Of a stretch of DNA of 64,000 nucleotides, positions 49,538-62,408 are shown piece by piece. This stretch comes from Desulfosudaceae bacterium. Lineage in GTDB: Bacteria; Desulfobacterota; Desulfobacteria; Desulfobacterales; Desulfosudaceae. The stretch is from assembly GCA_963674745.2 (NCBI GenBank), contig CAXXDV010000003.1, positions 256,001 to 320,000 on the forward strand, in the 5' to 3' direction. The position numbers and the translations under genes were made by a program. Under the pieces are notes generated by a model. It ran no database searches. It was given only the letters and a program-made list of their open reading frames with translations, and had not been told where the DNA came from. Each line of letters opens with the position of its first letter. The stretch's first letter is position 1.

Positions 49538-51100
49538 TCACGCTTTGCTGCCGGCTTGTCTGCCAAATGGAATGCCCAGTTTTTTCATTCGTTTTCTAAG
49601 GGTGCTGGGATTCATCCCAAGCAGGGTTGCCGCACCTTTGGGCCCCTGGACCCGTCCACCGGTCATGTCCAGGACGGATTCAATATGCTGCTTCATGACG
49701 TCGTCGAGCTTCAGGAAACCGGGGACCGGAAGTTGAGCCACCGGTTGTTCCCTGTGGCTGACTTGAGGGCCGGTCCTCTCAAAGTAAAGCCAGTGCCCCT
49801 GGTCCGCATGAATGCTCCGGATCAGCGCCCTTTCCACCATGTTTTCAAGTTCCCTGATATTACCGGGCCAGTCGTGTCCCTGAAGCATTTCGATGCTTCC
49901 CGGGGCAGGTTTCCGGATAAAACGAAGGTTCAGTTCTCTGGATTTTTTTTCGATCAAAAAAGACACTAGGTCGGGAATATCCTCTTTTCGATGCCTCAGG
50001 GGCGGGATGGTGATGGGAAAGACATTGAGTCTGAACCAGAGGTCTTCCCTGAAGGTCTGATTCCGGACCATCTCTTCCAGGTTCCGGTGGGTGGCGGTAA
50101 TGATGCGGATGTCCACGGGAATGGGCTTTGTTCCGCCCACCCGTTCGATTTCTTTTGACTGAATGACCCGCAGCAGCCTGACCTGGGCCTGGAGAGGCAG
50201 TTCGCCGATCTCATCCAGAAAGATCGTGCCGTGGTCGGCCCGTTCAAACCGGCCGCGTTTTTGTTCACCGGCGCCGGTAAAAGCGCCTTTTTCATGGCCG
50301 AACAACTCGCTGTCGATCAGGGACTCGGGGATGGCGCCGCAGTTGACCTTTATAAACGGCCCCTCGCTTCTCGGGGATGCATAATGAATGGCGTTGGCAA
50401 TGACTTCCTTGCCCACCCCGGTTTCTCCCAGCAGGAGCACCTGACTTGACAAAGGAGACACCTGGCGGACCATCTCCATGACATGTTTGAGGCCCGAATG
50501 TTCACCGATAATTTCGCCGCCGGCCTTATCCTGGAGCTGTTGGCTCAAAAAACGGTTGTCGTCGGCCAGAATCTCTTTAAGCCTTAACAGCTCCCTGTGG
50601 CTTAACCCGTTGGCCATGGCAATGGCAAATGGCCCCTGAAGCAGATTGAGTTTGTCCAGGTGCTGTTGCGTGTAGCGGTTGCGGCCCCGGGCGATTAAGG
50701 TCACCATGCCGATATTCTGGCCCTCCACATCCAGTCGTGAGGCCAGGCAGGAGACAACCGGTTTTTCCATGGTCTGCCAGGCGAGCTTTACGATCGGGTG
50801 GTTTTCCGGCTGGTTGATCAGGCCGATAGGGTCGTCACTGAACTCGTATTGTTTGATGTGATCAATCGCCTCCCGGGTCAGCTTGAGCGTTTTGGAAGGC
50901 ATTTTAAGCTCGGGCTCTTTGACCAGTGCCACGAAATTCAACAACCCCTGATCCCTGTCAAACAGGCTCAGGCTGATGCCATCTGCGGGGATGGTTTGCC
51001 GAATGTAGGCATAGGCATTGGTCAGCATGGTGTCGATATCGAGGCTTCCGCAAATTCGCAGTGTTGCCTGGTAAAAAAAATCAATGTCTTCACGCTTCAT
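49538..51100 (-). CDS. Sigma54-dependent activator (GAF, AAA+, HTH; FhlA-like)
   Basis: GETGVGKE, SELFGHEKGAFTGA, FLDEIGE, FREDLWFRL, WPGNIREL, GAATLLG. Confidence 0.95.
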   Translation of the reverse strand: MKREDIDFFYQATLRICGSLDIDTMLTNAYAYIRQTIPADGISLSLFDRDQGLLNFVALVKEPELKMPSKTLKLTREAIDHIKQYEFSDDPIGLINQPENHPIVKLAWQTMEKPVVSCLASRLDVEGQNIGMVTLIARGRNRYTQQHLDKLNLLQGPFAIAMANGLSHRELLRLKEILADDNRFLSQQLQDKAGGEIIGEHSGLKHVMEMVRQVSPLSSQVLLLGETGVGKEVIANAIHYASPRSEGPFIKVNCGAIPESLIDSELFGHEKGAFTGAGEQKRGRFERADHGTIFLDEIGELPLQAQVRLLRVIQSKEIERVGGTKPIPVDIRIITATHRNLEEMVRNQTFREDLWFRLNVFPITIPPLRHRKEDIPDLVSFLIEKKSRELNLRFIRKPAPGSIEMLQGHDWPGNIRELENMVERALIRSIHADQGHWLYFERTGPQVSHREQPVAQLPVPGFLKLDDVMKQHIESVLDMTGGRVQGPKGAATLLGMNPSTLRKRMKKLGIPFGRQAGSKA

Positions 51101-51165
51101 CTCTGCTCCCGCTACAAATAAACGCGTGCTTCAATGAGCACGGATTGACGGTAGTTGTCGTTAAC

Positions 51166-51227
51166 TATCCCATAGTCCGGAATTTATAAAAAATATCCCA
51201 TAAGACATTTTTATTCTGTCCTATGGG
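51166..51227. promoter_or_regulatory. Candidate activator-binding sites (CCCATA(A/G) repeats)
   Basis: CCCATAAGAC-N11-GTCCTATGGG inverted pair (51197-51227) plus a third half-site TATCCCATAG at 51166. Confidence 0.5.
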
Positions 51228-51280
51228 GCATGTTTTTGCAATAAAAAAATTATAGCCTATAATTTCAAATAGTTATTTGT

Positions 51281-51297
51281 TCGGCACGGATTTGGCA
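51281..51297 (+). promoter_or_regulatory. Sigma54 (-24/-12) promoter
   Basis: TCGGCACGGATTTGGCA = GG-N10-GC with the GGCACG core, divergent from the activator gene. Confidence 0.7.
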
Positions 51298-51378
51298 AAG
51301 CATAAGAGAAACAAGGCCTCTGATGCATTCAGATGTCAAAACGGATTAAAACAAAATTTTTTATTAAAGGAGAATATC

Positions 51379-51846
51379 ATGAAAAAGAGCATCACAAAAA
51401 GAACACGCATTTCGATCCTGTTCGCAATCCTTGTCGTTGGCTGTTCGGCTCCTGCGGTTTACGCCGGTTCAGCGGTTTCAATGATCGATGATGAAGTCAT
51501 TAGTGCCCTGGAAGGTTTCCGGTTCGGTCAACCTGTTGCTCAAGCCAATGCCGCGCAGCAGCAAAACGCGGATCAGGTTGTCCTTGACGATTGTTCGATG
51601 ATCAACGAAGAAGTCATTGCCGGATTAAAGGACTTCCGGTTCGGTTCTTCAAATCAATACCTCTACGCGCAAAAAAAGAACTCACCCGTTGAGGCCACCT
51701 CATGGAGCGAAAAAAGCGACTCCATTATTGACGCCGAACTGATCAGTCAACTGGAGGGCGTTGAAATTGTCGAAGGCGTCCGGATCGTCGAAGCCAAATT
51801 TGTCGCTGACATGAGAGCAATTATGGATAAATTTGCTGAAAATTAA
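51379..51846 (+). CDS. Exported protein with three internal repeats
   Basis: AAGGAG SD, signal peptide; SMIDDEVISALEGFRFG / SMINEEVIAGLKDFRFG / SIIDAELISQLEGVEI. Confidence 0.75.
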   Translation: MKKSITKRTRISILFAILVVGCSAPAVYAGSAVSMIDDEVISALEGFRFGQPVAQANAAQQQNADQVVLDDCSMINEEVIAGLKDFRFGSSNQYLYAQKKNSPVEATSWSEKSDSIIDAELISQLEGVEIVEGVRIVEAKFVADMRAIMDKFAEN

Positions 51847-51926
51847 ATCACAAAAGACGGGCACAGGGCCCGGGCCTTTCTCGAGTTGACCCTGCCCGGA
51901 CTCGTCCTGCACGGCGCGAACGAACG

Positions 51927-51983
51927 AGGGGCACCCCCCTGTGGGTGCCCTTTCATCGGGCAGGCACGGGTGCCGGCCCCTAC
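51927..51983. repeat. GTAG-type REP doublet
   Basis: AGGGGCACCCCCCTGTGGGTGCCC...GGGCAGGCACGGGTGCCGGCCCCTAC. Confidence 0.8.
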
Positions 51984-52112
51984 AATATTCGCGAGCGGCC
52001 TGCAGCACGGCAGAAGGGGCCAAGGGGGCTTGTCCGGAAGAGTGAATTCTCCCAACATTTTTATAATGATGATAACCCGAATATCTCCTAAAAATTTCGG
52101 GTCAAAGGAGTT

Positions 52113-52898
52113 ATGATGAAAAAAAATGGCATGTTGTTAATCACAATGGTTTTTCTGTTTACCGCCTCGCCGTCCTGGGCGACGCTGGAAATGGGTATCG
52201 GTGCCTGGAATCAGAATATCGAGGGTGATATTTCCTATTCGCTTTTCAACAATGTTACTGATGAGGCTGATCTGCATCGGGACCTGGATCTTAAAAAAGA
52301 TACCCGTGGCACCGGGTATTTAAAGCTGGAACTGCCGGTACTGCCGAGTCTTTATCTGGGCTTTACCCCCATGTCGTATAAAGGTACGGACGTGATGGAT
52401 CGGCCGTATAATTTCGGGCACTACACTTTTCTGGAGGATCGGCTGCTGGATACCCGTATGAAATTAAATCATTTCGACATTGGATTGTACTACAGCCTTA
52501 CCATGCCGGATCTGGCCGGGTTAAAACAGGTCAAGCTGGATCTGGGACTGGATCTGCGTACGGCTGAACTTGACGTGTCCGTAACCGGCACGGTCGCAAC
52601 CGGCAACGGTGAAAAACGGGTTCGGGAAGCGGAAGATTATACGCTGCCCATTCCCATGCTTTATGCTGCGGTCCAGATTACGCCCGCGGAAAAAATTTCT
52701 CTGGAATTTGAAGGGCGGGGCGTGTCTCTGGGCGGGGATGATCTGGTCAGCCTGCTGGGCAAGGTAAAGTACCGCATCCATGGGGCGTTGTTTATCGCCG
52801 CCGGCTACCGGTATGATTACATCCGCCTGGATGAAGACGATCTTAATATTGACAGTACCGTCAGCGGCATCTTTTGCGAAACCGGCCTGGAGTTCTAG
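52113..52898 (+). CDS. Outer-membrane beta-barrel protein, TIGR04219-like
   Basis: Signal peptide, G.W...I.G, P.LP.L, D..LYY, PIPMLY, GYR, terminal aromatic (GLEF). Confidence 0.75.
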   Translation: MMKKNGMLLITMVFLFTASPSWATLEMGIGAWNQNIEGDISYSLFNNVTDEADLHRDLDLKKDTRGTGYLKLELPVLPSLYLGFTPMSYKGTDVMDRPYNFGHYTFLEDRLLDTRMKLNHFDIGLYYSLTMPDLAGLKQVKLDLGLDLRTAELDVSVTGTVATGNGEKRVREAEDYTLPIPMLYAAVQITPAEKISLEFEGRGVSLGGDDLVSLLGKVKYRIHGALFIAAGYRYDYIRLDEDDLNIDSTVSGIFCETGLEF

Positions 52899-52978
52899 GC
52901 GCTCGTTTAAGTGGAATGTGTGACTGGACGTGAATGATCATAAAGTCGATTTTGCACAGATAGAGAACCGGCAACGGG

Positions 52979-53482
52979 TCAACTGGCAAAATCAGCCACA
53001 CATTTATTCAGACAGGAACGGCATGTCTTTCGGTCTAATTTGCCTGCTGAGCAATAGTCCACGTAAGCCTCGATCCAGTCCGCTCCGGCCCTGGGGCAGT
53101 TGTCGATAAACTGGATGAATTTGACTAGGCTGTTGACTGTTTCCGTGTCCATGACATGTTCCATGTGGCAGGCGGTAGCGTCCGCCTTGTCATCACCGAT
53201 TTGCAACACCCGGGACAGGAAGTCTTTGATGACCCTGTGCCGACGTTCGATTTCCCGGCCAATTTTTCGCCCCGCAGAGGTCAGCGTGATATAACTGTAA
53301 GGTTCGTAATTGACCAGCCCTTTTTCTGCCAGAACCTTGAGCGCACTTGTGACCGATCCCCGTTGAACACCGATGGCTTCGGCAATGTCTTTCTGCCTGG
53401 CAACTTTATCGGTAGTCTCCAGACGAAGAATGGCCTCCAGATAATCTTCCAGACTTTCGGAAAGAGGATTTTTCTTGTCCAT
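52979..53482 (-). CDS. DtxR/MntR-family metal-dependent repressor with Cys-rich tail
   Basis: SLEDYLEAI, DIAE..GV..GSVT.AL, Y.PY..ITLT, RRH, ACHMEH. Confidence 0.92.
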   Translation of the reverse strand: MDKKNPLSESLEDYLEAILRLETTDKVARQKDIAEAIGVQRGSVTSALKVLAEKGLVNYEPYSYITLTSAGRKIGREIERRHRVIKDFLSRVLQIGDDKADATACHMEHVMDTETVNSLVKFIQFIDNCPRAGADWIEAYVDYCSAGKLDRKTCRSCLNKCVADFAS

Positions 53483-53545
53483 ATTTTCTTCCTTTTTAAA
53501 GTTTTTACAGTCTATCTGAGCATATTTTATAAGTTAAAACAAAAA

Positions 53546-53599
53546 AAGTTGGCTATGGCAAACTTTTTTATTGACAAATAAGTTTGAAATACCTAACTT
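53546..53599 (+). promoter_or_regulatory. feo promoter with two AAGTT-N10-AACTT operator palindromes
   Basis: AAGTTGGCTATGGCAAACTT (53546-53565) and AAGTTTGAAATACCTAACTT (53580-53599) flank TTGACA (53571); -10 TAACTT at 17-nt spacing. Confidence 0.7.
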
Positions 53600-53641
53600 T
53601 GTAATTCAAATAAAACACTAACTGCCGTGAAAAGAGAGGGT

Positions 53642-53923
53642 ATGATGACAATCAACATGAGAAAAATGCAAAAAAATCAGACTGGAACCATCGTTGCCGT
53701 TAAAGCCGATCGTGAGTTGGGCAGGCGAATAAGGGACATGGGCCTCGTACCGGGGACTGAGATTAGGGTCCAGGGCCGGGCACCGCTATATGATCCGGTG
53801 TCGTTACGGCTCAAAGGATTTACGCTGACGCTTCGCAATAACGAAGCAAATTTTATCGATGTCAAAATTAGTCGAAAGGGGAAAGACGAAAACAATGAAC
53901 GCAACCATCGCTTTGGCCGGTAA
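53642..53923 (+). CDS. feoA: Ferrous iron transport protein A
   Basis: RRIRDMGLVPG, APLYDP, LTLRNNEA. Confidence 0.92.
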   Translation: MMTINMRKMQKNQTGTIVAVKADRELGRRIRDMGLVPGTEIRVQGRAPLYDPVSLRLKGFTLTLRNNEANFIDVKISRKGKDENNERNHRFGR

Positions 53924-56105
53924 TCCCAATTCCGGCAAAACAACACTTTTTAACGCGCTTACCGGCGCGAGGCAGCAGGTCGGCAATTATCCCGGTGTAA
54001 CGGTGGAAAAGAAACAGGGCGTATACAAAGCCGCTGAAAGCAATTTTACGATTGTTGACCTGCCGGGGACATATTCGCTGACGGCCTATTCACTGGAAGA
54101 GGTGGTGACCAGGGATTTTCTGGTTAATGAAAAGCCGGGGATGGTAATCAATATTGTGGATGCTTCCAATCTGGAACGCAATTTATATCTTTCACTTCAA
54201 TTCATGGAACTGGGTTTGCCGGTCTGTATCGCTTTGAACATGATGGATGTCGCCCGGGACAGGGGGATAGAAATCGATATTGATATGTTGTCCCGTCTCC
54301 TGGGCGTCCCGGTAATTCCAACAGTGGCCAGAAACGGTAAAGGTAAGAAGGCACTGATGGAGACAGTGGCGAGTCAAGTAATAACACCGAAACCATCGGT
54401 TCTCAGTATCTCATATGGTGCGGAAATCGACCATGCATTGGATGAAATAGAAAAAATTATTGAGAACACGGGTTTCATGAACCAGAAATATCCAAGCCGC
54501 TGGATCGCCTTAAAATATTTGGAAAACGATCAGCAGATTATGGAAAGAGGCCGTCAGGCTTCGTCTCTCTTGTCTGGAAAGATAGAACGGGTTGTTAAGA
54601 AATTAACCGATCATCTTGCCGATACCCTGGATACCTATCCTGAGGTGGTGATTGCAGATCAACGTTACGGATATATCAGTTCCTTATTGAAACAGGGTGT
54701 TGTCAAACACCAACAGGATATCAATCGCCTGCAGTTATCCGACAGGGTCGACCGGGTGGTGACCAACCGGTTTTGGGGGCCGATTATCATGGCAGCGGTT
54801 CTTATCGGTTTATATCAGTTTACTTTTACCTATAGCGAAATACCCGTTGGCTGGATAGAAGGATTGTTCGGCCACCTGGGCGTTCTGGCCGAAAGCCGCT
54901 TGTCTGACGGTTTACTCAAGTCTTTGGTCGTGTCCGGTATTATCGACGGCGTGGGTGGTGTTCTGGGATTTGTTCCACTGATCATGTTCATGTTTTTCGG
55001 GATTTCCATCCTGGAAGATTCCGGTTACCTGGCCAGGGTGGCATATATGCTGGACCGGATTTTTCGAATGTTCGGTCTGCATGGCAGTTCCGTCATGGCT
55101 TTTATCGTGTCCGGCGGCATTGCCGGCGGCTGCGCAGTGCCGGGTGTCATGGCCGCCCGTACCCTTAAATCTTCCCGGGAACGTCTGGCCACTCTGCTGA
55201 CCGTGCCGTTTATGAACTGCGGCGCAAAACTGCCGGTTTTTGCCCTGCTGGCAGCCGCGTTCTTCGCGGAAAACGAAGCCCTGGTGATGTTGGTGATAAC
55301 GCTCATTGCCTGGGTCGGGGCCCTGCTGGTCGCCAAACTGCTGAGAAGCACGGTGGTGAGGGGGGAATCAACACCGTTTGTGATGGAATTGCCGCCTTAT
55401 CGGCTGCCCACTTTCAGGGGGCTGATGATTCACACCTGGGAACGGACCTGGCAGTATATTAAAAAAGCGGGAACCGTGATTCTGGCCATATCCGTGCTGT
55501 TGTGGGCCATGATGACCTTTCCCGGATTACCCGATGCCGAAATCGACCGGTTTGCGCAGCAGCGGTCGAAATTGCTGGCCGGTGCCTCACCGGCGGTCAC
55601 AGCCGAAATCGAAGCCGGTGAAGACGGCACGGAATTGTCTTTAAAAGCCAGGATGCTGGCGGACCGGCTGACAGCCATCGAACAAAAACAAGCCGAGGCC
55701 GGGCTGCGACATTCTCTGGCCGGACGTATCGGTACTGGATTGGAAGGCCTTACCCGTCTGGCCGGATTTGACTGGCGGACCAATATCGCCCTGGTGGGCG
55801 GGTTTGCCGCCAAAGAAGTGGTGGTGTCGACCCTGGGTACGGCCTACTCGCTGGGAGAGGTCGACCCGGAAGAAGCCGGTGCGTTGTCGGACCGGCTGGC
55901 GGCCGCTCCCGGATGGAGCCCTCTGGTGGCCCTGAGCCTGATTGTTTTTACCATTTTTTACGCGCCCTGTTTTGTGGCCGTGGTATGTATCGCCAGGGAA
56001 GCCGGCTCCTGGAAATGGGGTGCTTTTTCCATGCTGTTTAATACCGCTCTGGCCTTCTGCCTGTCCGTGACCGTATTCCAGGTGGGTTCGTTGCTGGGGT
56101 ATTAG
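53895..56105 (+). CDS. feoB: Ferrous iron transport protein B
   Basis: GNPNSGKT, VGNYPGVTVE, DLPGTYSL, NMMD, LEDSGYLAR, PFMNCGAKL, FVMELP.Y. Confidence 0.96.
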   Translation: MNATIALAGNPNSGKTTLFNALTGARQQVGNYPGVTVEKKQGVYKAAESNFTIVDLPGTYSLTAYSLEEVVTRDFLVNEKPGMVINIVDASNLERNLYLSLQFMELGLPVCIALNMMDVARDRGIEIDIDMLSRLLGVPVIPTVARNGKGKKALMETVASQVITPKPSVLSISYGAEIDHALDEIEKIIENTGFMNQKYPSRWIALKYLENDQQIMERGRQASSLLSGKIERVVKKLTDHLADTLDTYPEVVIADQRYGYISSLLKQGVVKHQQDINRLQLSDRVDRVVTNRFWGPIIMAAVLIGLYQFTFTYSEIPVGWIEGLFGHLGVLAESRLSDGLLKSLVVSGIIDGVGGVLGFVPLIMFMFFGISILEDSGYLARVAYMLDRIFRMFGLHGSSVMAFIVSGGIAGGCAVPGVMAARTLKSSRERLATLLTVPFMNCGAKLPVFALLAAAFFAENEALVMLVITLIAWVGALLVAKLLRSTVVRGESTPFVMELPPYRLPTFRGLMIHTWERTWQYIKKAGTVILAISVLLWAMMTFPGLPDAEIDRFAQQRSKLLAGASPAVTAEIEAGEDGTELSLKARMLADRLTAIEQKQAEAGLRHSLAGRIGTGLEGLTRLAGFDWRTNIALVGGFAAKEVVVSTLGTAYSLGEVDPEEAGALSDRLAAAPGWSPLVALSLIVFTIFYAPCFVAVVCIAREAGSWKWGAFSMLFNTALAFCLSVTVFQVGSLLGY

Positions 56106-56116
56106 GAGATAGTCCG

Positions 56117-56347
56117 ATGGAAACCGTTATTATCATATTAATCGTAACCGCGGCCATGGTGTACTTTATCCGCAGATTTGTAAAATCATGCCGACAGGAA
56201 GGCGGTTGCCAGGGGTGCACAGCATGCAATTGCGGCGGTCCGGAGACTGGATCCTGCTGTGCGATGCAACCGGATATAAGAAATAATAAAAAAAACATTA
56301 TCATGACGGAAAGTCAACTCAATGAGAAACAGGCGCGGACACCATAA
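56117..56347 (+). CDS. FeoB-associated Cys-rich membrane protein
   Basis: AGGAG SD, N-terminal TM, GGCQGCTACNC. Confidence 0.75.
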   Translation: METVIIILIVTAAMVYFIRRFVKSCRQEGGCQGCTACNCGGPETGSCCAMQPDIRNNKKNIIMTESQLNEKQARTP

Positions 56348-56540
56348 CCCGCAAGGGCAATGCCTGGAAAACCAGGTTCGCTGTTGTTGTGGAAAACTGC
56401 TGGCAAAGCAGATCGATAACGGCGTTGTACTCAAGTGCACCCGGTGCAAGCGGGAAATTATCATCCGCTTTTCCGAGGCGGATCAGTCTTACGGTTCGGA
56501 TGACAGAGGAGATCCTGTTGTGATGCTTCCTGATGAGTAA
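56322..56540 (+). CDS. Mu Com-like zinc-finger protein
   Basis: VRCCCGKLLAK...VVLKCTRCKREI matches the Com pattern IRC..C.KLL....IEI.C.RCK. Confidence 0.72.
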   Translation: MRNRRGHHNPQGQCLENQVRCCCGKLLAKQIDNGVVLKCTRCKREIIIRFSEADQSYGSDDRGDPVVMLPDE

Positions 56541-56628
56541 GTGAAAAATTTGATACAAAAAAACGGCTTTGAACGCGTAAGAAAAGCCGGCGGAATAATA
56601 GAGCGGCCAGCGGCCAATTTAGAGCCTA

Positions 56629-56670
56629 GCGCCCGAAACCGGAACATACCGGTATTCGGGCGTTTTTTTT
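56629..56670 (+). terminator. Intrinsic terminator in the porin leader
   Basis: GCGCCCGAA-ACCGG / CCGGT-A-TTCGGGCGT stem with T8. Confidence 0.82.
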
Positions 56671-56697
56671 GAAATACATATTTTAACAGAAAGAACG

Positions 56698-57813
56698 ATG
56701 AAAAGGATGAAGCAAATGAGACGAAAAGTGATGTTGGTATGTGGGTTAATGACGATGATGGTTTTCTCGGTCGGAACGACAGCCCGGGCCGGTACAGTAA
56801 TGTCGGAGATGGATATTAACCTGTCCGGTGTTATTGAGGCGGAAGCAGGGTTCTCCAGTGATTATGATAATAACGATACTGGTGACATCGTGCTGGCTAC
56901 CATGGCGTTCGCTGTTGATACGCGACTTAACGCCTGGTGTTCCGGACATGCTCTTTTCTTATGGGAGGAAGACGTTACAGAACCGGTCGATGTTGATGAA
57001 GGTTTTATAACAGTTGGCGGCAAAGACGCGTACCCGTTCTATTTTTCCGCTGGCAAATTGTATGTCCCTTTCGGTGTATATGAAACCAGCATGGTCTCAG
57101 ACCCTCTTACACTTGAAATCGGTGAAACACGTGAGAGCGCCTTGCAGGTCGGTGTCGGATATAACGGGTTTTACGGGGCGGTTTACGCGTTTAACGGGGA
57201 TGTTCAGGATACGACTGGTAACAGCGACGATACCATTGAAACATTTGGCGTTAACACCGGGTATTTTTTTGAAAATAACGAAATCAGCGTGGACCTGGGG
57301 ATTGACTGGATCAGTAATTTAATGGATTCGGACGGACTCGAAGGCGTTTTTCAGGATGCCCGGGATGTGTTTGCTGATGCTAACCCGAACGGTTCATTTG
57401 ATCTGGAAAGTTACGTTGCCGGTATCGGTGTTCATGCCATCGTCAATGTCGCATCGTTCAGCCTCATCGGTGAATACATTATTGTAACTGATGACGTGGA
57501 TTATGTTACCGACGACGGTGCAGGATTAATTACCACCATATCATCGGACAAGCCGATGGCTTTACACCTTGAAGGTGTCTTCACATTTGAGGCCATGGGA
57601 AGAGAAATGAGTCTGGCCGCGACCTGGCAGTCTACGGATAACCTGGGCGGGTTTCTGCCGGAAATACGCTACGGCGCCGCGGCAGGCATTGCCCTGGCCG
57701 GAAATCTGGGGCTTGCCATTGAGTATGTCCATGATGAGGATTACAGCGTAAATGACGGGGGGACGGATGAGAGTGCCGACACGTTTACCCTGCAGCTGGC
57801 GCTGGCGTTTTAA
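56698..57813 (+). CDS. LbtU-family (siderophore porin-like) outer-membrane protein
   Basis: LSG.IEAEA, LWEE, DEG.I, GKLYVPFG.YET..VSDPLTLEIGETRE, FNGD, LPE.RYG, terminal QLALAF; exact start uncertain. Confidence 0.8.
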   Translation: MKRMKQMRRKVMLVCGLMTMMVFSVGTTARAGTVMSEMDINLSGVIEAEAGFSSDYDNNDTGDIVLATMAFAVDTRLNAWCSGHALFLWEEDVTEPVDVDEGFITVGGKDAYPFYFSAGKLYVPFGVYETSMVSDPLTLEIGETRESALQVGVGYNGFYGAVYAFNGDVQDTTGNSDDTIETFGVNTGYFFENNEISVDLGIDWISNLMDSDGLEGVFQDARDVFADANPNGSFDLESYVAGIGVHAIVNVASFSLIGEYIIVTDDVDYVTDDGAGLITTISSDKPMALHLEGVFTFEAMGREMSLAATWQSTDNLGGFLPEIRYGAAAGIALAGNLGLAIEYVHDEDYSVNDGGTDESADTFTLQLALAF

Positions 57814-57843
57814 CAGTCGAATGAAACAGTCGCCCAAAGCCAT

Positions 57844-57892
57844 GACCGGCCGGAAAATCAGCCTCCTGAAATTCCGGCCGGCCCGCGTTTTT
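57844..57892 (+). terminator. Probable terminator hairpin between the porin and adhesin genes
   Basis: CCGGCCGGAA...TTCCGGCCGG stem followed by a T run. Confidence 0.5.
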
Positions 57893-57961
57893 ATGATCAG
57901 TTCCGGATTTTTTTACTACAGTTTCTGCCATCACTGGGCGATCTTGAAAACCGGCCTTGTT

Positions 57962-60900
57962 CTACCAACCGAAGGTAATACCGGCCCGTCCGGAAACTTC
58001 ACTGCTTGTGCTGGCCGAGATGCCGGCGTTGACCAGTATTCGGTTTTCTTTCACGTAGTGAAACATACCGGCGGCAATGGCCTGTCTCGATCCATACGTG
58101 CCCACACCGACCGAGACCTGCGTATCGCCGGCTGAGCGGGCATTCGGCACCAGGGCCGACAGGGCCGCTCCCATGGCGCCGACATCATCCATCCTGTCAT
58201 CAAGGTCGCTGAGCTTGTCGTGAATCGTTTTGATATTATGAAAATTGCGGTCAATATTGCCGGTGTTGGTCGCGATGCTGTCGCTGTTGGCCGCTATGTC
58301 GCCGGTGTTGTTGTCAACCCGGCTGTCGACGGTATCCAGTTGCTGTTTGTTGACGGCGTCGGTGCTGTTGACACCGGCCGCCATGTTGGTGACGCGCCGC
58401 TGGTTGTCGGTATTGCCGACAGAAACCGTGTCCGCTTCCGAGGCCACGGCATCTTTACCCAGGGCAACACTGTTGGTCGCGCCGGAGCGAACAGCCGCGT
58501 TCTGCCCGAGAGCGGTCCCGCCATCAGCATTTGCATCCACCCGGGTATCCGCACCCACGGCCACGCTGTTTTCAGAATCAATGCCAGCGTTGGTGCCCAG
58601 GGCGGTGCTGCCGTCGGCAATGACAACGGTGCCGCGCCCGATGGCGATATCGTTGGTCCTGGCAGAGGCACCCGGCCCGATGGCAATGGCACCGTCAAAT
58701 GAAGCGCTGGAAACGCCATCACTGCCGGTTGACAGCCATTCGAGATCGGCCAAGCCGTCAGCATTGGCGGCAATCGCCCGGGTGTTTCGGTCAATATTAT
58801 AGGTATTGTTAATTGAACCGGCAACCATGCCGCTCAACTGGCTGACGTTTACGGCATCGGTCGGGTCGATGCCGGCCGCAACGTTGGTGATACGACGTTC
58901 TGACCCGGCCGCGCCCACGGAAACGGTATTGTTCTGGGCGGCAACAGAACCGGCGCCCAGGGCTACCGAGTTGGTGCCTGTGACGACGGCACCCGTACCG
59001 ATACCGATATTGCCGGTGCCGGAAACCGTGGCGCCCATGGCCGCGAAGTTGCCGTCGCCGGTCACCGTGTTGCCGTTGCCGGACACAAAGTGGTTGTCGC
59101 CGGTGACACTGTTGCTGCTGCCGTACACCCCGTTGTAGCTGCTGTTGACGACATTGTCGCTGCCGATCACCCCGTTGCTGTTACTGTCATCCGCCAGGGT
59201 GTTGTTCTGGCCGCTGACCAGGTTAAAGCCGTTATCCTCTCCGAGAGAGTTGAACATGCCGCTGACGTTATTAAAGCCGCTGCCTTCGTCGAGGCGGTTG
59301 AACATCCCGCTGACATCGTTGGCGATGTTGCCGTCTTCAAGTTGATTGATAAATCCACCGACCCGGTTAAACCCATTGTTGTCTCCCAGGGAGTTGAATA
59401 CACCGCTGACCTGGTTGCCGGAGCTGGATTCTCCCAGGTTGTTATTCAGTCCGCTGACGTTGTTTTGAGAACTGCCGTCCCCCAGGGAGTTAAATCCGCC
59501 GCCAATGACATTCCGGTCATTGTCATTTCCGAGGGTATTGTTCATGCCGCCGACAAGGTTGCTGCCGTTGTCATCACCAAGGGTGTTTAATACGCCGCTG
59601 ACACTGTTCTGGTTGCTGCCGTTACCCAACCTGTTGAGTCCGCCGCCGACAACGTTTCGTTCATTCGCTTCTCCCAGGGTGTTGGAAAAACCGGTAACAC
59701 TGTTGTGCAGGTTGTCAATTGCCAGGGTATTGCTTTCGCCACTGACCAAATTGGAATCGTTGTTGTCCCCCAGGGTATTGAATTGACCACTGATGGCGTT
59801 ATGGAGGTTGTCATTGCCGAGGGTGTTGTTCTGGCCGCTGACAAGGTTCCGATCATTGTTGTTTCCCAGCGTATTATCGCCGCCGCCGACGATGTTCCGG
59901 GCACTTCCGTTACCCAGGCTGTTGTCCCTTCCACTGACGGCGTTGTTATTGTTCCTGTTGCCCAGGGTGTTGTTTCTTCCGCTGACGGCATTGTGGTCAT
60001 TATTATTGCCCAGGATATTGTTTCTTCCGCTGACGGCGTTGTTGGTGTTGTTGTTCCCCAGGGTGTTGCTCTCTCCGCTGACCGTGTTGGCAAAGGTGTC
60101 GTCTCCCAGGGTGTTGTATCCGCCGCCGACCGTGTTGGCAATATTGATTTGACCCAGTGTATGATACCCACCGCTGACATTGTTGCTGTCACTGCCTGAA
60201 TCAAGGCTGTTGAAGATGCCGCTGACATTGTTGTGATAGGTATTATCGTTCAGCCTGTTCATCATTCCGCCGACAGTGTTCCGGTCACTGTCATCTCCAA
60301 GGGAATTGAATATACCGCTGACCTGGTTGCTGCCGCTGCCGTTACCGATCCTGTTGTTGGCACCGCTGACACTGTTCTGGTTGGCACTGTCACCCAGCCT
60401 GTTGTTCCCGCCGCCGACAATATTCCGGTCGGCGTCACTCCCGAGGCTGTTTATTGTTCCGCCAACCAGGTTTGAACTGTTGTCATTAGACAGACTGTTG
60501 TTGACACCACCGACAATGTTCCGGTCACTGTTATCTCCCAGATTATTGTTCTCACCGCTGACGGCATTTGATTCATTGTCGCCGCCGAGGACGTTGTTCT
60601 CACCGCTGACCTGGTTTGAGTTGGTATTTGACGTGCCGGAGGTACCGAGGACATTGTTCACCCCGCTGACGGCATTGTAGTCGTTTCTGCCGTAGATGAA
60701 GTTGTTTTCACCATTGACGGCGTTCATGTCGCTGTTGTTGCCGATATCGTTTTGGGCACCGCTTAACAGGTTACCGACACTGTTGTTTCTTATACGGTTA
60801 TCCTCACCATGAATAATGTTGGCGCTGCTGTCGTCATTGATGATATTGTCCCGGCCGTCGATCAGGTTGGCATCACTGTTACTGCCAATCTGGTTGTTGG

Positions 60901-61078
60901 CCCCGTTTATTTCGTTTAACTGGCTGCCGGCACCGGGGCCCGTATTGCCGGGGCCGTTTATTTCATTGGCCGTGGCAGTTAAAGGCATTGCCAGGCCAAT
61001 ACAGGCCAACATGGCAATCAACATTGCCGGCCGGTATCTTTCAAATAATGTTTTTGCGCGTAGGGTTGACGGTTTCAT
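57962..61078 (-). CDS. Trimeric autotransporter adhesin (YadA-like) with a long Asn/Gly-rich repeat head
   Basis: Signal peptide, SVALG head repeats, two necks (RRITNVAAG...DAVN..QL), coiled stalk, anchor ending GITFGW; AAGGAGG SD. Confidence 0.93.
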   Translation of the reverse strand: MKPSTLRAKTLFERYRPAMLIAMLACIGLAMPLTATANEINGPGNTGPGAGSQLNEINGANNQIGSNSDANLIDGRDNIINDDSSANIIHGEDNRIRNNSVGNLLSGAQNDIGNNSDMNAVNGENNFIYGRNDYNAVSGVNNVLGTSGTSNTNSNQVSGENNVLGGDNESNAVSGENNNLGDNSDRNIVGGVNNSLSNDNSSNLVGGTINSLGSDADRNIVGGGNNRLGDSANQNSVSGANNRIGNGSGSNQVSGIFNSLGDDSDRNTVGGMMNRLNDNTYHNNVSGIFNSLDSGSDSNNVSGGYHTLGQINIANTVGGGYNTLGDDTFANTVSGESNTLGNNNTNNAVSGRNNILGNNNDHNAVSGRNNTLGNRNNNNAVSGRDNSLGNGSARNIVGGGDNTLGNNNDRNLVSGQNNTLGNDNLHNAISGQFNTLGDNNDSNLVSGESNTLAIDNLHNSVTGFSNTLGEANERNVVGGGLNRLGNGSNQNSVSGVLNTLGDDNGSNLVGGMNNTLGNDNDRNVIGGGFNSLGDGSSQNNVSGLNNNLGESSSGNQVSGVFNSLGDNNGFNRVGGFINQLEDGNIANDVSGMFNRLDEGSGFNNVSGMFNSLGEDNGFNLVSGQNNTLADDSNSNGVIGSDNVVNSSYNGVYGSSNSVTGDNHFVSGNGNTVTGDGNFAAMGATVSGTGNIGIGTGAVVTGTNSVALGAGSVAAQNNTVSVGAAGSERRITNVAAGIDPTDAVNVSQLSGMVAGSINNTYNIDRNTRAIAANADGLADLEWLSTGSDGVSSASFDGAIAIGPGASARTNDIAIGRGTVVIADGSTALGTNAGIDSENSVAVGADTRVDANADGGTALGQNAAVRSGATNSVALGKDAVASEADTVSVGNTDNQRRVTNMAAGVNSTDAVNKQQLDTVDSRVDNNTGDIAANSDSIATNTGNIDRNFHNIKTIHDKLSDLDDRMDDVGAMGAALSALVPNARSAGDTQVSVGVGTYGSRQAIAAGMFHYVKENRILVNAGISASTSSEVSGRAGITFGW

Positions 61079-61175
61079 CGCATACCTCCTTATGTATGGG
61101 TAAAAAATTTAAGAACCTGTTTGCTCGGGCCGTTGGTTGGCCGGTAGAGGAGACTTAAAAGCCCTTATTCAGGAT

Positions 61176-61212
61176 AAAAAAAGGCCGGGTTACCTTTCCT
61201 GGGAACCCGACC
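61176..61212 (-). terminator. Intrinsic terminator in the adhesin 5' leader
   Basis: Minus strand GGTCGGGTTCCC-AGGAAA-GGTAACCCGGCC-T7. Confidence 0.75.
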
Positions 61213-61334
61213 ATAAACAAAATTTCGCTGTTTTGATGCCCCAATGAAAATCGTAAACAAAGCGCCTGTCATCCGGCAGGCCATATTGTGTTTTTGTTTG
61301 CGGTTTCCTTTCTTTTGTTTGTTATATTACTACT

Positions 61335-61363
61335 ATTATAGTATGTTTTTGAAATGATGTCAA
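61335..61363 (-). promoter_or_regulatory. Perfect-consensus sigma70 promoter
   Basis: TTGACA-tcatttcaaaaacatac(17)-TATAAT on the minus strand. Confidence 0.85.
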
Positions 61364-61514
61364 GGACTGCTACTTTTTATTAGTAAAATTAAATAGTTAG
61401 TTTGACGGACCGGTTTCGGGCGATACCCTTTTACATCAGGGGAGAGTTAGATACGCCTGGCCTGTCTTTCAACCAGTCAGGCACCCGATAAGATAATTGT
61501 CTTTCGCAACCTTA

Positions 61515-62408
61515 TCAGCAAAGGGTCGTGGTCAGAAAAATCAGGCCGAAAGCAATGATAACCAGGCTGGAAAGGATTCTGATAATATGTTCGGCTGTAA
61601 GGGAATGTTTTTTAAGAACCGTCTGCATCATACCGGTTTTGCCCAGGATCACACTGACGGCGACAACCGATATGGTCGAGGCCATGCCCAGGGAAATACA
61701 GGCCGCCAGCACCAGGCCCAGAACCAGGCCGTCCATGGAAATACAGAAGAGCATGACCATGACCACGGCCGGGCAGGGGACCAGCCCTACCGTGCCGGCC
61801 CAGGCCAGCAGCCCTTTTCCGGGTTCGTTCGCAGAAGAATGATCCGGACGGGCGTTGCGGCTTAAAATCAGGTCCCTTGTGCTTTTAAAGAAGATAATCA
61901 GGCCCAGAAGCGTAATCAGGCCGAAGCTGACCACCTGGGTAACGGTGGTCACGTCTCCCAGTGTGTCCGCCACACCCTGCTGCAGCACATAGCGCAGGCC
62001 CAGTACAGCCACGGCCCCTGACAGGCCGTGGACAAAAGCAAAGACAAAGGCAAACAGCAAGCCGCCGGGAATGGACACGTTATGTGACAGGATATATGAC
62101 GAAGAGACAACCTTGCCGTGTCCCGGGCCGGCCGAATGAATGGCACCGTAAGCAAAAGCCAGGGCCAGCAGAAAAATCAGGGCCTTGAAGCTTCGACCGG
62201 CCTGGATTTCCCTGATCAGTTCCGACATTTTCAACTTCAGCTGGTGCTGCCACAGGATGAGCTTGACAAAGACCCGGCTTTTAACCGGCGGTGCCGGGGC
62301 CTCGTGCTGTTTATCCGGGCTGGTGGTAAACGGGTTATGGGACAGGGCCGGACCACCCATGGCGCAGAGTAAGCAGACCAGTAATATGAGGTTGATGGTT
62401 TTTTTCAC
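61515..62408 (-). CDS. Nickel/cobalt transporter (RcnA/NiCoT-like)
   Basis: YGAIHSAGPGHGK, GLVPCP, SLGMA, multiple TMs; overlaps the DUF1007 gene. Confidence 0.88.
   Translation of the reverse strand: MKKTINLILLVCLLCAMGGPALSHNPFTTSPDKQHEAPAPPVKSRVFVKLILWQHQLKLKMSELIREIQAGRSFKALIFLLALAFAYGAIHSAGPGHGKVVSSSYILSHNVSIPGGLLFAFVFAFVHGLSGAVAVLGLRYVLQQGVADTLGDVTTVTQVVSFGLITLLGLIIFFKSTRDLILSRNARPDHSSANEPGKGLLAWAGTVGLVPCPAVVMVMLFCISMDGLVLGLVLAACISLGMASTISVVAVSVILGKTGMMQTVLKKHSLTAEHIIRILSSLVIIAFGLIFLTTTLC

Follow-up and report, generated by a model that had tools for sequence, protein, structure and literature searches.

The locus examined here, in the genome of a Desulfosudaceae bacterium, raises the question of what a small protein resembling Com of phage Mu controls when it is encoded on a host chromosome, between iron-uptake genes and the gene of an outer-membrane porin. 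The window, that is, the whole stretch of 64,000 nucleotides (nt) that was analysed, carries an open reading frame (ORF) for a Com-like zinc-ribbon protein of 72 amino acids (aa) at 56322-56540, which we named ZnR, and behind it four short repeats of which the last runs into an intrinsic terminator. We consider it probable that ZnR binds these repeats in RNA, blocks formation of the terminator and gates read-through into the porin gene. The initial annotation had described the 72-aa ORF, the four repeats, the terminator and a porin ORF 27 nt further on, and each of these was recovered where it had been placed.

The repeat element and its conservation

The core of the locus is made up of the following features.

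56322-56540, plus strand: ZnR, Com-like zinc-ribbon protein, 72 aa (ORF with RCCCGKLL...KCTRCKRE; hhalign against Mu Com)
56600-56634, plus strand: four GAG(N)CC-like repeat units, candidate RNA binding site of ZnR (sequence; homologous element in 12 other copies; 63.2 bits with covariance model R1, described below)
56600-56608, plus strand: repeat unit U1, AGAGCGGCC
56609-56615, plus strand: repeat unit U2, AGCGGCC
56621-56626, plus strand: repeat unit U3, AGAGCC
56628-56634, plus strand: repeat unit U4, AGCGCCC, 5' arm of the terminator
56628-56670, plus strand: intrinsic terminator, stem-loop 56628-56664 with U-run 56663-56670 (-25.2 kcal/mol; covariation)
56698-57813, plus strand: LbtU-family outer-membrane porin ORF (NF033652, E 3.7e-85, 286 bits against a cut-off of 90)

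The repeat block begins sixty nt past the stop codon of ZnR. The terminator hairpin, with a folding energy of -25.2 kcal/mol, is followed by 8 T (56663-56670), and the porin ORF starts at 56698, 27 nt past this T-run; its real start is probably the ATG at 56716, behind AAGGA, a better-placed ribosome site. A simple terminator scanner did not list the hairpin at 56628-56664, probably owing to a bulge in the stem. When the repeats were blocked in the folding, only an inner hairpin of -8.8 kcal/mol was left, 5 nt short of the U-run. Upstream of the terminator stem, GGCC at 56605-56608 can pair with GGCC at 56612-56615 in a possible small hairpin joining U1 and U2, and an alternative pairing joins U2 and U3 (GGC at 56612-56614 with GCC at 56624-56626). 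The alternative helix holds one covarying pair, which is U-A in most copies of the element, C-G in the window and A-U in locus L045, the last as judged by eye.

At least four matches to the pattern AG[AC]G[CG]{0,2}CC within 40 nt were found as one cluster in the 64-kb window, at this site, and of 200 simulations of the window with a first-order Markov model, one produced a cluster of this kind. The pattern was picked after the site had been seen, and conservation in other genomes is therefore a stronger argument than the simulation. Across 55900-57300, no sequence variants were present among contigs of the same strain or study, including a partial contig that does not cover the element, and public RNA data listed no match to this range.

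Conservation was examined in Desulfobacterales genomes and metagenome contigs, in which loci are labelled L and genomes G, each with a number. Scans with ZnR alignments gave 6 loci from species genomes and 14 from metagenomes. Left out were the duplicates L050 (the same as L048), L053 (the same as L045) and L054/L063 (one shared element), together with the distant high-GC forms L059 and L060; L061 and L062 were rejected as false positives, a 421-aa ORF with a chance LKCLRCKRE. The comparison thus rested on 14 distinct loci of the subfamily including the window, 13 of which could be assessed, as L057 ends at the gene. Conserved repeats overlapping terminators next to non-phage Com-like genes, which the initial annotation had proposed to look for, were indeed found: an element lies behind the ZnR gene, on the same strand, in 12 of the 13 assessable loci. 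With a second copy in L047, there are 13 copies overall, and their consensus is TAGAGGCC-A-GAGGTC-A-(3-4 nt)-AGAACC-AA-GAGCCCGG...CCGGGCTC-T(5-9). All 13 have four GAG(N)CC-like units, the last of which serves as the 5' arm of a hairpin that carries a U-run of at least 5.

Sequence is not conserved in the spacer past the stop codon, in the terminator loop or in the spacer before the next gene, and the flanking proteins of related loci share only limited identity (25-58% for LbtU, 44-67% for ZnR). Since the 35-nt block is kept while the spacers vary and the flanking proteins diverge, it is under selection of its own. In the terminator stem, compensatory changes occurred at 7 of 11 pairs and 95.4% of the cells in the alignment were paired. 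The presence of G-U pairs, together with the U-run, indicates that the functional strand is the plus strand, and judged by these features the stem-loop is an intrinsic terminator acting on it.

An LbtU-family porin gene follows 10 of the 13 element copies at a distance of 27-63 nt, in line with the earlier expectation that such elements would stand before transport genes. Nine of the ten pass the NF033652 cut-off of 90 bits (286 in the window, 91-319 in the eight others), and that of L044 was assigned by 51% tblastn identity. The other three copies precede a porin-like ORF (L051), a feoA-like gene followed by feoA, feoB and LbtU (L045), and a His/Asp-rich ORF (second copy of L047). The gene upstream of ZnR varies, being feoB with a gene for a Cys-rich protein, DtxR, MarR-like, Fur-like or NicO-like, and hence the constant core consists of ZnR, element and porin rather than of feoB and ZnR.

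The end of the U-run and the next start codon are 27-63 nt apart (14 nt in L045), and a good ribosome site accompanies every one of these start codons. This gap leaves too little room for a promoter and leader in most loci. A promoter of the porin's own behind the hairpin, which would have spoken against control at the terminator, did not emerge: no sigma-70-like promoter fits the 27-63 nt between hairpin and start, and a simple scan of the plus strand over 52800-58200 found no promoter-like site. As far as can be read from the sequence, the downstream gene can be expressed only by passage through the hairpin.

The second copy in L047 (6478-6552, 67.6 bits) comprises repeats and terminator and follows the LbtU porin gene; 88 nt further on comes a small His/Asp-rich ORF of about 76-80 aa without a family match, and one ZnR may gate two successive points of that operon. 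A different leader was observed in L084 (G002:C19), from a genome of the same genus in which this query found no ZnR. About 150 nt upstream of an LbtU homologue with 38% identity it has a promoter-like TTGACA...TAAGAAT and then a hairpin (CCACGA...TCGTGG) with six T, some 20 nt ahead of the ribosome site, possibly an attenuator that is unrelated to the element although it serves a similar gene.

To measure how specific the element is, we used covariance model R1, built from 12 element copies. The 5.5-Mb genome of the organism itself contained a single strong copy (63.2 bits), the next match having an E of 0.19, and among 151 genomes of the order strong copies were found in G000 and G014 only, both of which have ZnR. 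Weak hits of 24-35 bits in other genomes were inspected and discarded as plain terminators without repeats or a ZnR-like ORF, among them the eight matches of 28-35 bits in the order genomes. L052, which was outside the training set, scored 36.5 bits. The ZnR family is present in 6 of 401 phylum genomes and gave a strong match in 3 of 61 relatives (E below 1e-10 in both cases), and the window query found it in neither of two congeners. BLASTN of the intergenic region against 401 genomes of the order returned only noise; even the true homologue in G014 went undetected, which shows that DNA BLAST lacks the sensitivity needed here.

In the more distant phylum-level homologues, the best R1 match of a 20-kb search lay directly behind the gene in 3 of 5 cases (L083, 24.1 bits; L080, 19.2 bits; L079, 16.8 bits). 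The units in these three loci are looser, and a clear U-run is missing from the hairpins or unverified. In L079 and L083, high-GC loci from other orders, no U-run follows the hairpin, and the ribosome site of a secreted-protein gene further downstream may be enclosed by long-range pairing; by analogy with Mu, the regulated step may there be translation.

ZnR and its relation to Com

Profile comparison linked ZnR to Com of phage Mu. Alignment A2 of ZnR matched Mu Com in hhalign with a probability of 94.1% (E 1.3e-7), and alignment A3, with 17 sequences, with 96.6% (E 4.8e-10; 44% identity over 32 columns). Close homologues of ZnR are few. When a profile built on four of its homologues was run against 1.84 billion representative sequences, it retrieved 735 proteins at E of at most 1e-3, which share the motif RCxCGxLLA...G..hKCxRCKR. 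The four candidate zinc ligands C21, C23, C39 and C42 (CxC...CxxC) are invariant. The middle Cys of the CCC motif (C22) is nearly invariant only in the subfamily linked to Feo and LbtU; elsewhere in the family P, R, H, S, E, D or L takes its place. The AlphaFold2 model of ZnR is a three-stranded ribbon (predicted local distance difference test score 86-93 for residues 21-50) with low-confidence tails, which are basic and predicted to be disordered. A Foldseek search of this model against the PDB gave no significant match, the top one being the zinc ribbon of aIF2-beta (E 1.0) among generic zinc ribbons. ZnR relatives were found neither in IMG/VR contigs nor, by tblastn, in 50,697 phage records. 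From the profile comparisons we conclude that ZnR represents a distant, host-encoded branch of the Com superfamily that lies outside the Pfam family as now drawn.

Many members of the wider family (P0011, P0014-P0016, P0020-P0027 and P0030) carry a tandem pair of ZnR domains on one chain, an arrangement that would fit bipartite repeat sites. In the high-GC metagenome contig of L059 (1290-1971), a DtxR-like gene and a Cys-rich ORF like the FeoB-associated one are followed by a ZnR-like domain (RCSCKRLL...KCPRCKRE) that runs in frame, without a stop, into beta-barrel-like sequence; it may represent a fusion, or no more than an open frame of the sort that is usual in high-GC DNA.

The RNA site of Com offers a template for the repeats. 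According to a study of Com (Nowacka et al. 2019, PMC6483171), systematic ligand evolution through exponential enrichment (SELEX) with a Mu-like Com yielded the core GAG(N)2CC, mostly in two copies. These flank a stem of 3-4 bp, the loop of which is closed by a C-G pair in every case, binding depends crucially on an accessible GA, and more than one Com may bind the target; in Mu itself the motifs adjoin and partly overlay the translation-inhibition hairpin. The element described here has the layout GA-[GGCC]-AGA-[GGUC], in which a C-G pair closes a 4-bp stem and GA stands ahead of the stem as well as in its loop. It continues with AGAACC-AA-GAGCCC, which contains the CC(N)2-3GAG given in that paper, and its last unit lies inside the terminator hairpin. 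The element parallels the RNA site of Com in a close but inexact way, since its units have a single variable base where those of Com have two.

Proposed read-through control and its rivals

If ZnR acts as we propose, the nascent transcript would fold the strong hairpin with its U-run whenever ZnR is lacking, and transcription would stop before the porin gene. Once accumulated, ZnR would bind the GAG(N)CC-type units, probably first at the small GA-flanked hairpin of U1 and U2, and its binding would extend to U4. Since U4 is the 5' arm of the terminator, its occupancy would preclude the terminator, and RNA polymerase would read on into the LbtU porin gene, or into feoA-feoB in L045. ZnR would itself be transcribed from the upstream metal-repressed promoter, so that the porin would be expressed only when the promoter is derepressed and ZnR has built up, in effect a delayed AND gate. 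RNA binding, the direction towards antitermination and this physiological logic are what we infer from the arrangement.

Metal sensing, as suggested in the initial annotation, gained no support from any result here; the third Cys that is specific to the subfamily is the sole hint of it. A much wider generalisation, which we regard as doubtful, is that the whole RCxCG...CxxC family (at least 735 clusters at 50% identity, often tandem and largely unannotated) consists of self-contained riboregulator cassettes. Each gene would then have its own GAG..CC target behind it and gate transcription or translation of envelope and transport genes, and in the Feo/LbtU subfamily the extra Cys of CCC would tie RNA binding to metal (Fe(II)/Zn(II)) or redox state, making the protein an iron sensor.

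Several results weigh against control of read-through by a Com-like protein. On the RNA side, the U1-U2 and U2-U3 helices are each about 91% paired in the alignment and neither has decisive covariation, and no RNA fold that competes with the terminator, as an alternative antiterminator would, was found by eye. The window copy has GCG instead of GAG in U2 and U4 and keeps GA in only two of its four units; it is the most divergent of the full-length copies at order level and has the lowest score (63 bits against 60-84) despite its membership of the training set. The units read GAG(N)1CC where Com prefers GAG(N)2CC, and such short motifs can match by chance. Among the loci, G003 is the exception: its ZnR gene is followed by a convergent pair resembling a toxin-antitoxin system, and despite ZnR that genome contains no LbtU match and no element anywhere. 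In G014, the element is separated from ZnR by a 115-aa hydrophobic, membrane-type ORF (L022:7531-7878) that overlaps the end of ZnR and has no counterpart in the window or the other loci. On the protein side, the CxC knuckle of ZnR aligns opposite CxxC in Com, and NCBIfam has no family for ZnR. The Com-likeness asserted in the initial annotation therefore stands at the level of the hhalign profiles and fails by Pfam's own model, since ZnR has no match to PF10122 (Zn_ribbon_Com) even at E of at most 10. The gathering score of that family is 22.9 bits; Mu Com itself scores 36.8 bits, and 2 of 32 sampled ZnR-family proteins pass (P0014 with 23.9 bits and P0140 with 27.3 bits).

Four other explanations have to be set against the one that we favour. 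The strongest, though unlikely, retains binding of the element by ZnR and gives it a different outcome, namely 3'-end stabilisation of the upstream transcript, enhanced termination or a Com-like control of translation. The ZnR message has the element as its 3' end, and the hairpins of L079 and L083, without a U-run and perhaps with the ribosome site enclosed, come nearer to the structure in Mu. However, the hairpin carries a U-run of at least 5 in 13 of 13 order-level copies, the ribosome site of the next gene lies 15-50 nt past the hairpin and is not paired with it, and U4 is within the 5' arm, so its occupancy should open the stem, not close it. It is quite unlikely that the element is a cis-acting RNA working without ZnR, either a metal or metabolite riboswitch or a small RNA derived from the 3' untranslated region, with ZnR doing something else such as metal handling for FeoB or the porin. 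Such a role would suit the position of the element in metal-uptake clusters, the conserved single-stranded stretch followed by a terminator, an architecture that characterises riboswitch expression platforms as well as Hfq-type small RNAs, and the covarying base pair of the alternative helix. Against it, an Rfam 15 scan of 56000-57000 returned no family (best match AgvB, 18.4 bits against a gathering score of 56; all E at least 1), only about 35 nt lie upstream of the terminator with a helix of at most 3-4 bp, and the repeats resemble the Com SELEX motif. The element also co-occurs strictly with ZnR whatever the upstream regulator (DtxR, MarR-like or Fur-like).

Inherited baggage, in the sense of a horizontally spread cassette of ZnR, terminator and porin in which the element is a terminator with a neutral flank, would account for the patchy distribution of ZnR among the relatives, phylum genomes and congeners. 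It is even less to be expected when the 35-nt block is kept while neighbouring non-coding stretches vary, when proteins of the same loci are only 25-67% identical, and when the element has moved with ZnR to a place before feoA in L045 and recurs behind the porin in L047. The least credible explanation, very improbable in our view, is that ZnR regulates by binding DNA, with the repeats as a double-stranded operator. The units are direct repeats, as in many operators, and annotation pipelines call proteins of the Com family "DNA-binding transcriptional regulator". Yet the repeats stand upstream of a terminator and run into it, no promoter follows, their orientation relative to ZnR is invariant, and the G-U pairs and the U-run point to RNA of the plus strand; Com itself binds RNA (PMC6483171). 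We retain read-through control by ZnR bound to the nascent RNA as the probable function of the element.

The genes around ZnR agree with a setting in metal uptake. Upstream of it lie the following features.

52979-53482, minus strand: DtxR/MntR-family metal-dependent repressor, divergent from feoA (PF02742, E 7.3e-21; PF01325, E 1.3e-15)
53627-53923, plus strand: feoA (PF04023, E 7.5e-17)
53859-56105, plus strand: feoB, 748 aa (ORF; FeoB in related loci 69-81% identical by tblastn)
56117-56347, plus strand: FeoB-associated Cys-rich membrane protein (PF12669, E 4.5e-07, 30.5 bits against a cut-off of 27)

ZnR begins within the last 26 nt of the PF12669 Cys-rich ORF (56322-56347), and in G014 the corresponding ORFs overlap by 4 nt (ATGA), which suggests translational coupling. 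Further downstream, a gene for a NicO-like nickel/cobalt transporter (61515-62408, minus strand; PF03824, E 2.2e-13) was observed. It recurs near the ZnR cluster in L043, L044 and L051, in the last of which it lies directly upstream of ZnR, and thus the module does not keep company with iron genes only. A 1038-aa ORF (57962-61078, minus strand) that is convergent with the porin gene has dozens of degenerate N-x-x-S-G-x-x-N-x-L-G repeats and a C-terminal part that resembles a trimeric autotransporter adhesin. No phage genes were found among the ORFs of 50000-62000 by ORF listing and family scans, the neighbours being DtxR, feoAB, porin, the adhesin-like ORF and NicO, and the initial remark that none are nearby holds over that range.

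Significance and comparison with known systems

A search of full-text literature, which leaves most subscription journals outside its coverage, returned nothing on host Com-like regulators, on this RNA element or on attenuation before LbtU genes. To our knowledge, Com has so far been known only from phage Mu, as a zinc-finger protein that unfolds a single hairpin of a single phage mRNA. What would be new here is Com-type riboregulation on a host chromosome, at an intrinsic terminator and within a metal-uptake regulon. The proposal assigns a definite role, open to testing, to one branch of the Com family that is encoded by hosts. The protein and RNA pair appears to control an intrinsic terminator, and it would add a class to the short list of protein-dependent attenuators. 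It would also place a post-initiation layer on Fe(II) uptake by FeoAB and an LbtU-type porin in sulfate-reducing Desulfobacterales, where regulation is little studied. If the pair works as proposed, its approximately 70 aa and 70 nt could be used as a portable read-through switch.

ZnR resembles FeoC and other small Feo accessory proteins in its size, in containing Cys and in the place of its gene after feoB within a metal-repressed operon. It differs in that it is not directly after feoB in at least six loci, sitting instead between a regulator gene and the porin gene, in that its predicted fold is a zinc ribbon and not a winged helix, and in that a separate PF12669 protein is also present. 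A role as a FeoC-like partner of FeoB was therefore rejected, as ZnR tracks the porin and the element and not feoB.

The mode of action proposed for ZnR has its nearest functional counterparts in LicT/BglG, HutP, PyrR and TRAP, in which an RNA-binding protein chooses between terminator and read-through in a leader or intercistronic region. As in the ribonucleic antiterminator (RAT) sites of BglG and LicT, the binding site overlaps the 5' arm of the terminator. The fold and RNA motif of ZnR are unrelated to those of these proteins, a competing antiterminator helix is not evident, and no ligand or phosphorylation input is known; ZnR is encoded immediately upstream in the same transcript.

The closest relative remains Com with its target gene mom. 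Both proteins are small (about 60-70 aa) and homologous at the profile level, and the Cys4 zinc ribbon and disordered tail of Com are predicted for ZnR. The target of Com and the candidate target of ZnR lie directly behind or within the protein's own gene, with GAG..CC repeats that present the GA essential for Com by a short stem closed by C-G, and in both the repeats partly cover an inhibitory hairpin before the regulated gene. ZnR differs from Com in its CxC knuckle and in the spacing of its units, and it is host-chromosomal, with neither phage genes nor mom nearby. The hairpin on the ZnR side is an intrinsic terminator, so that the controlled step would be transcription, in contrast to translation in Mu, and the gene under control would be an iron-uptake porin.

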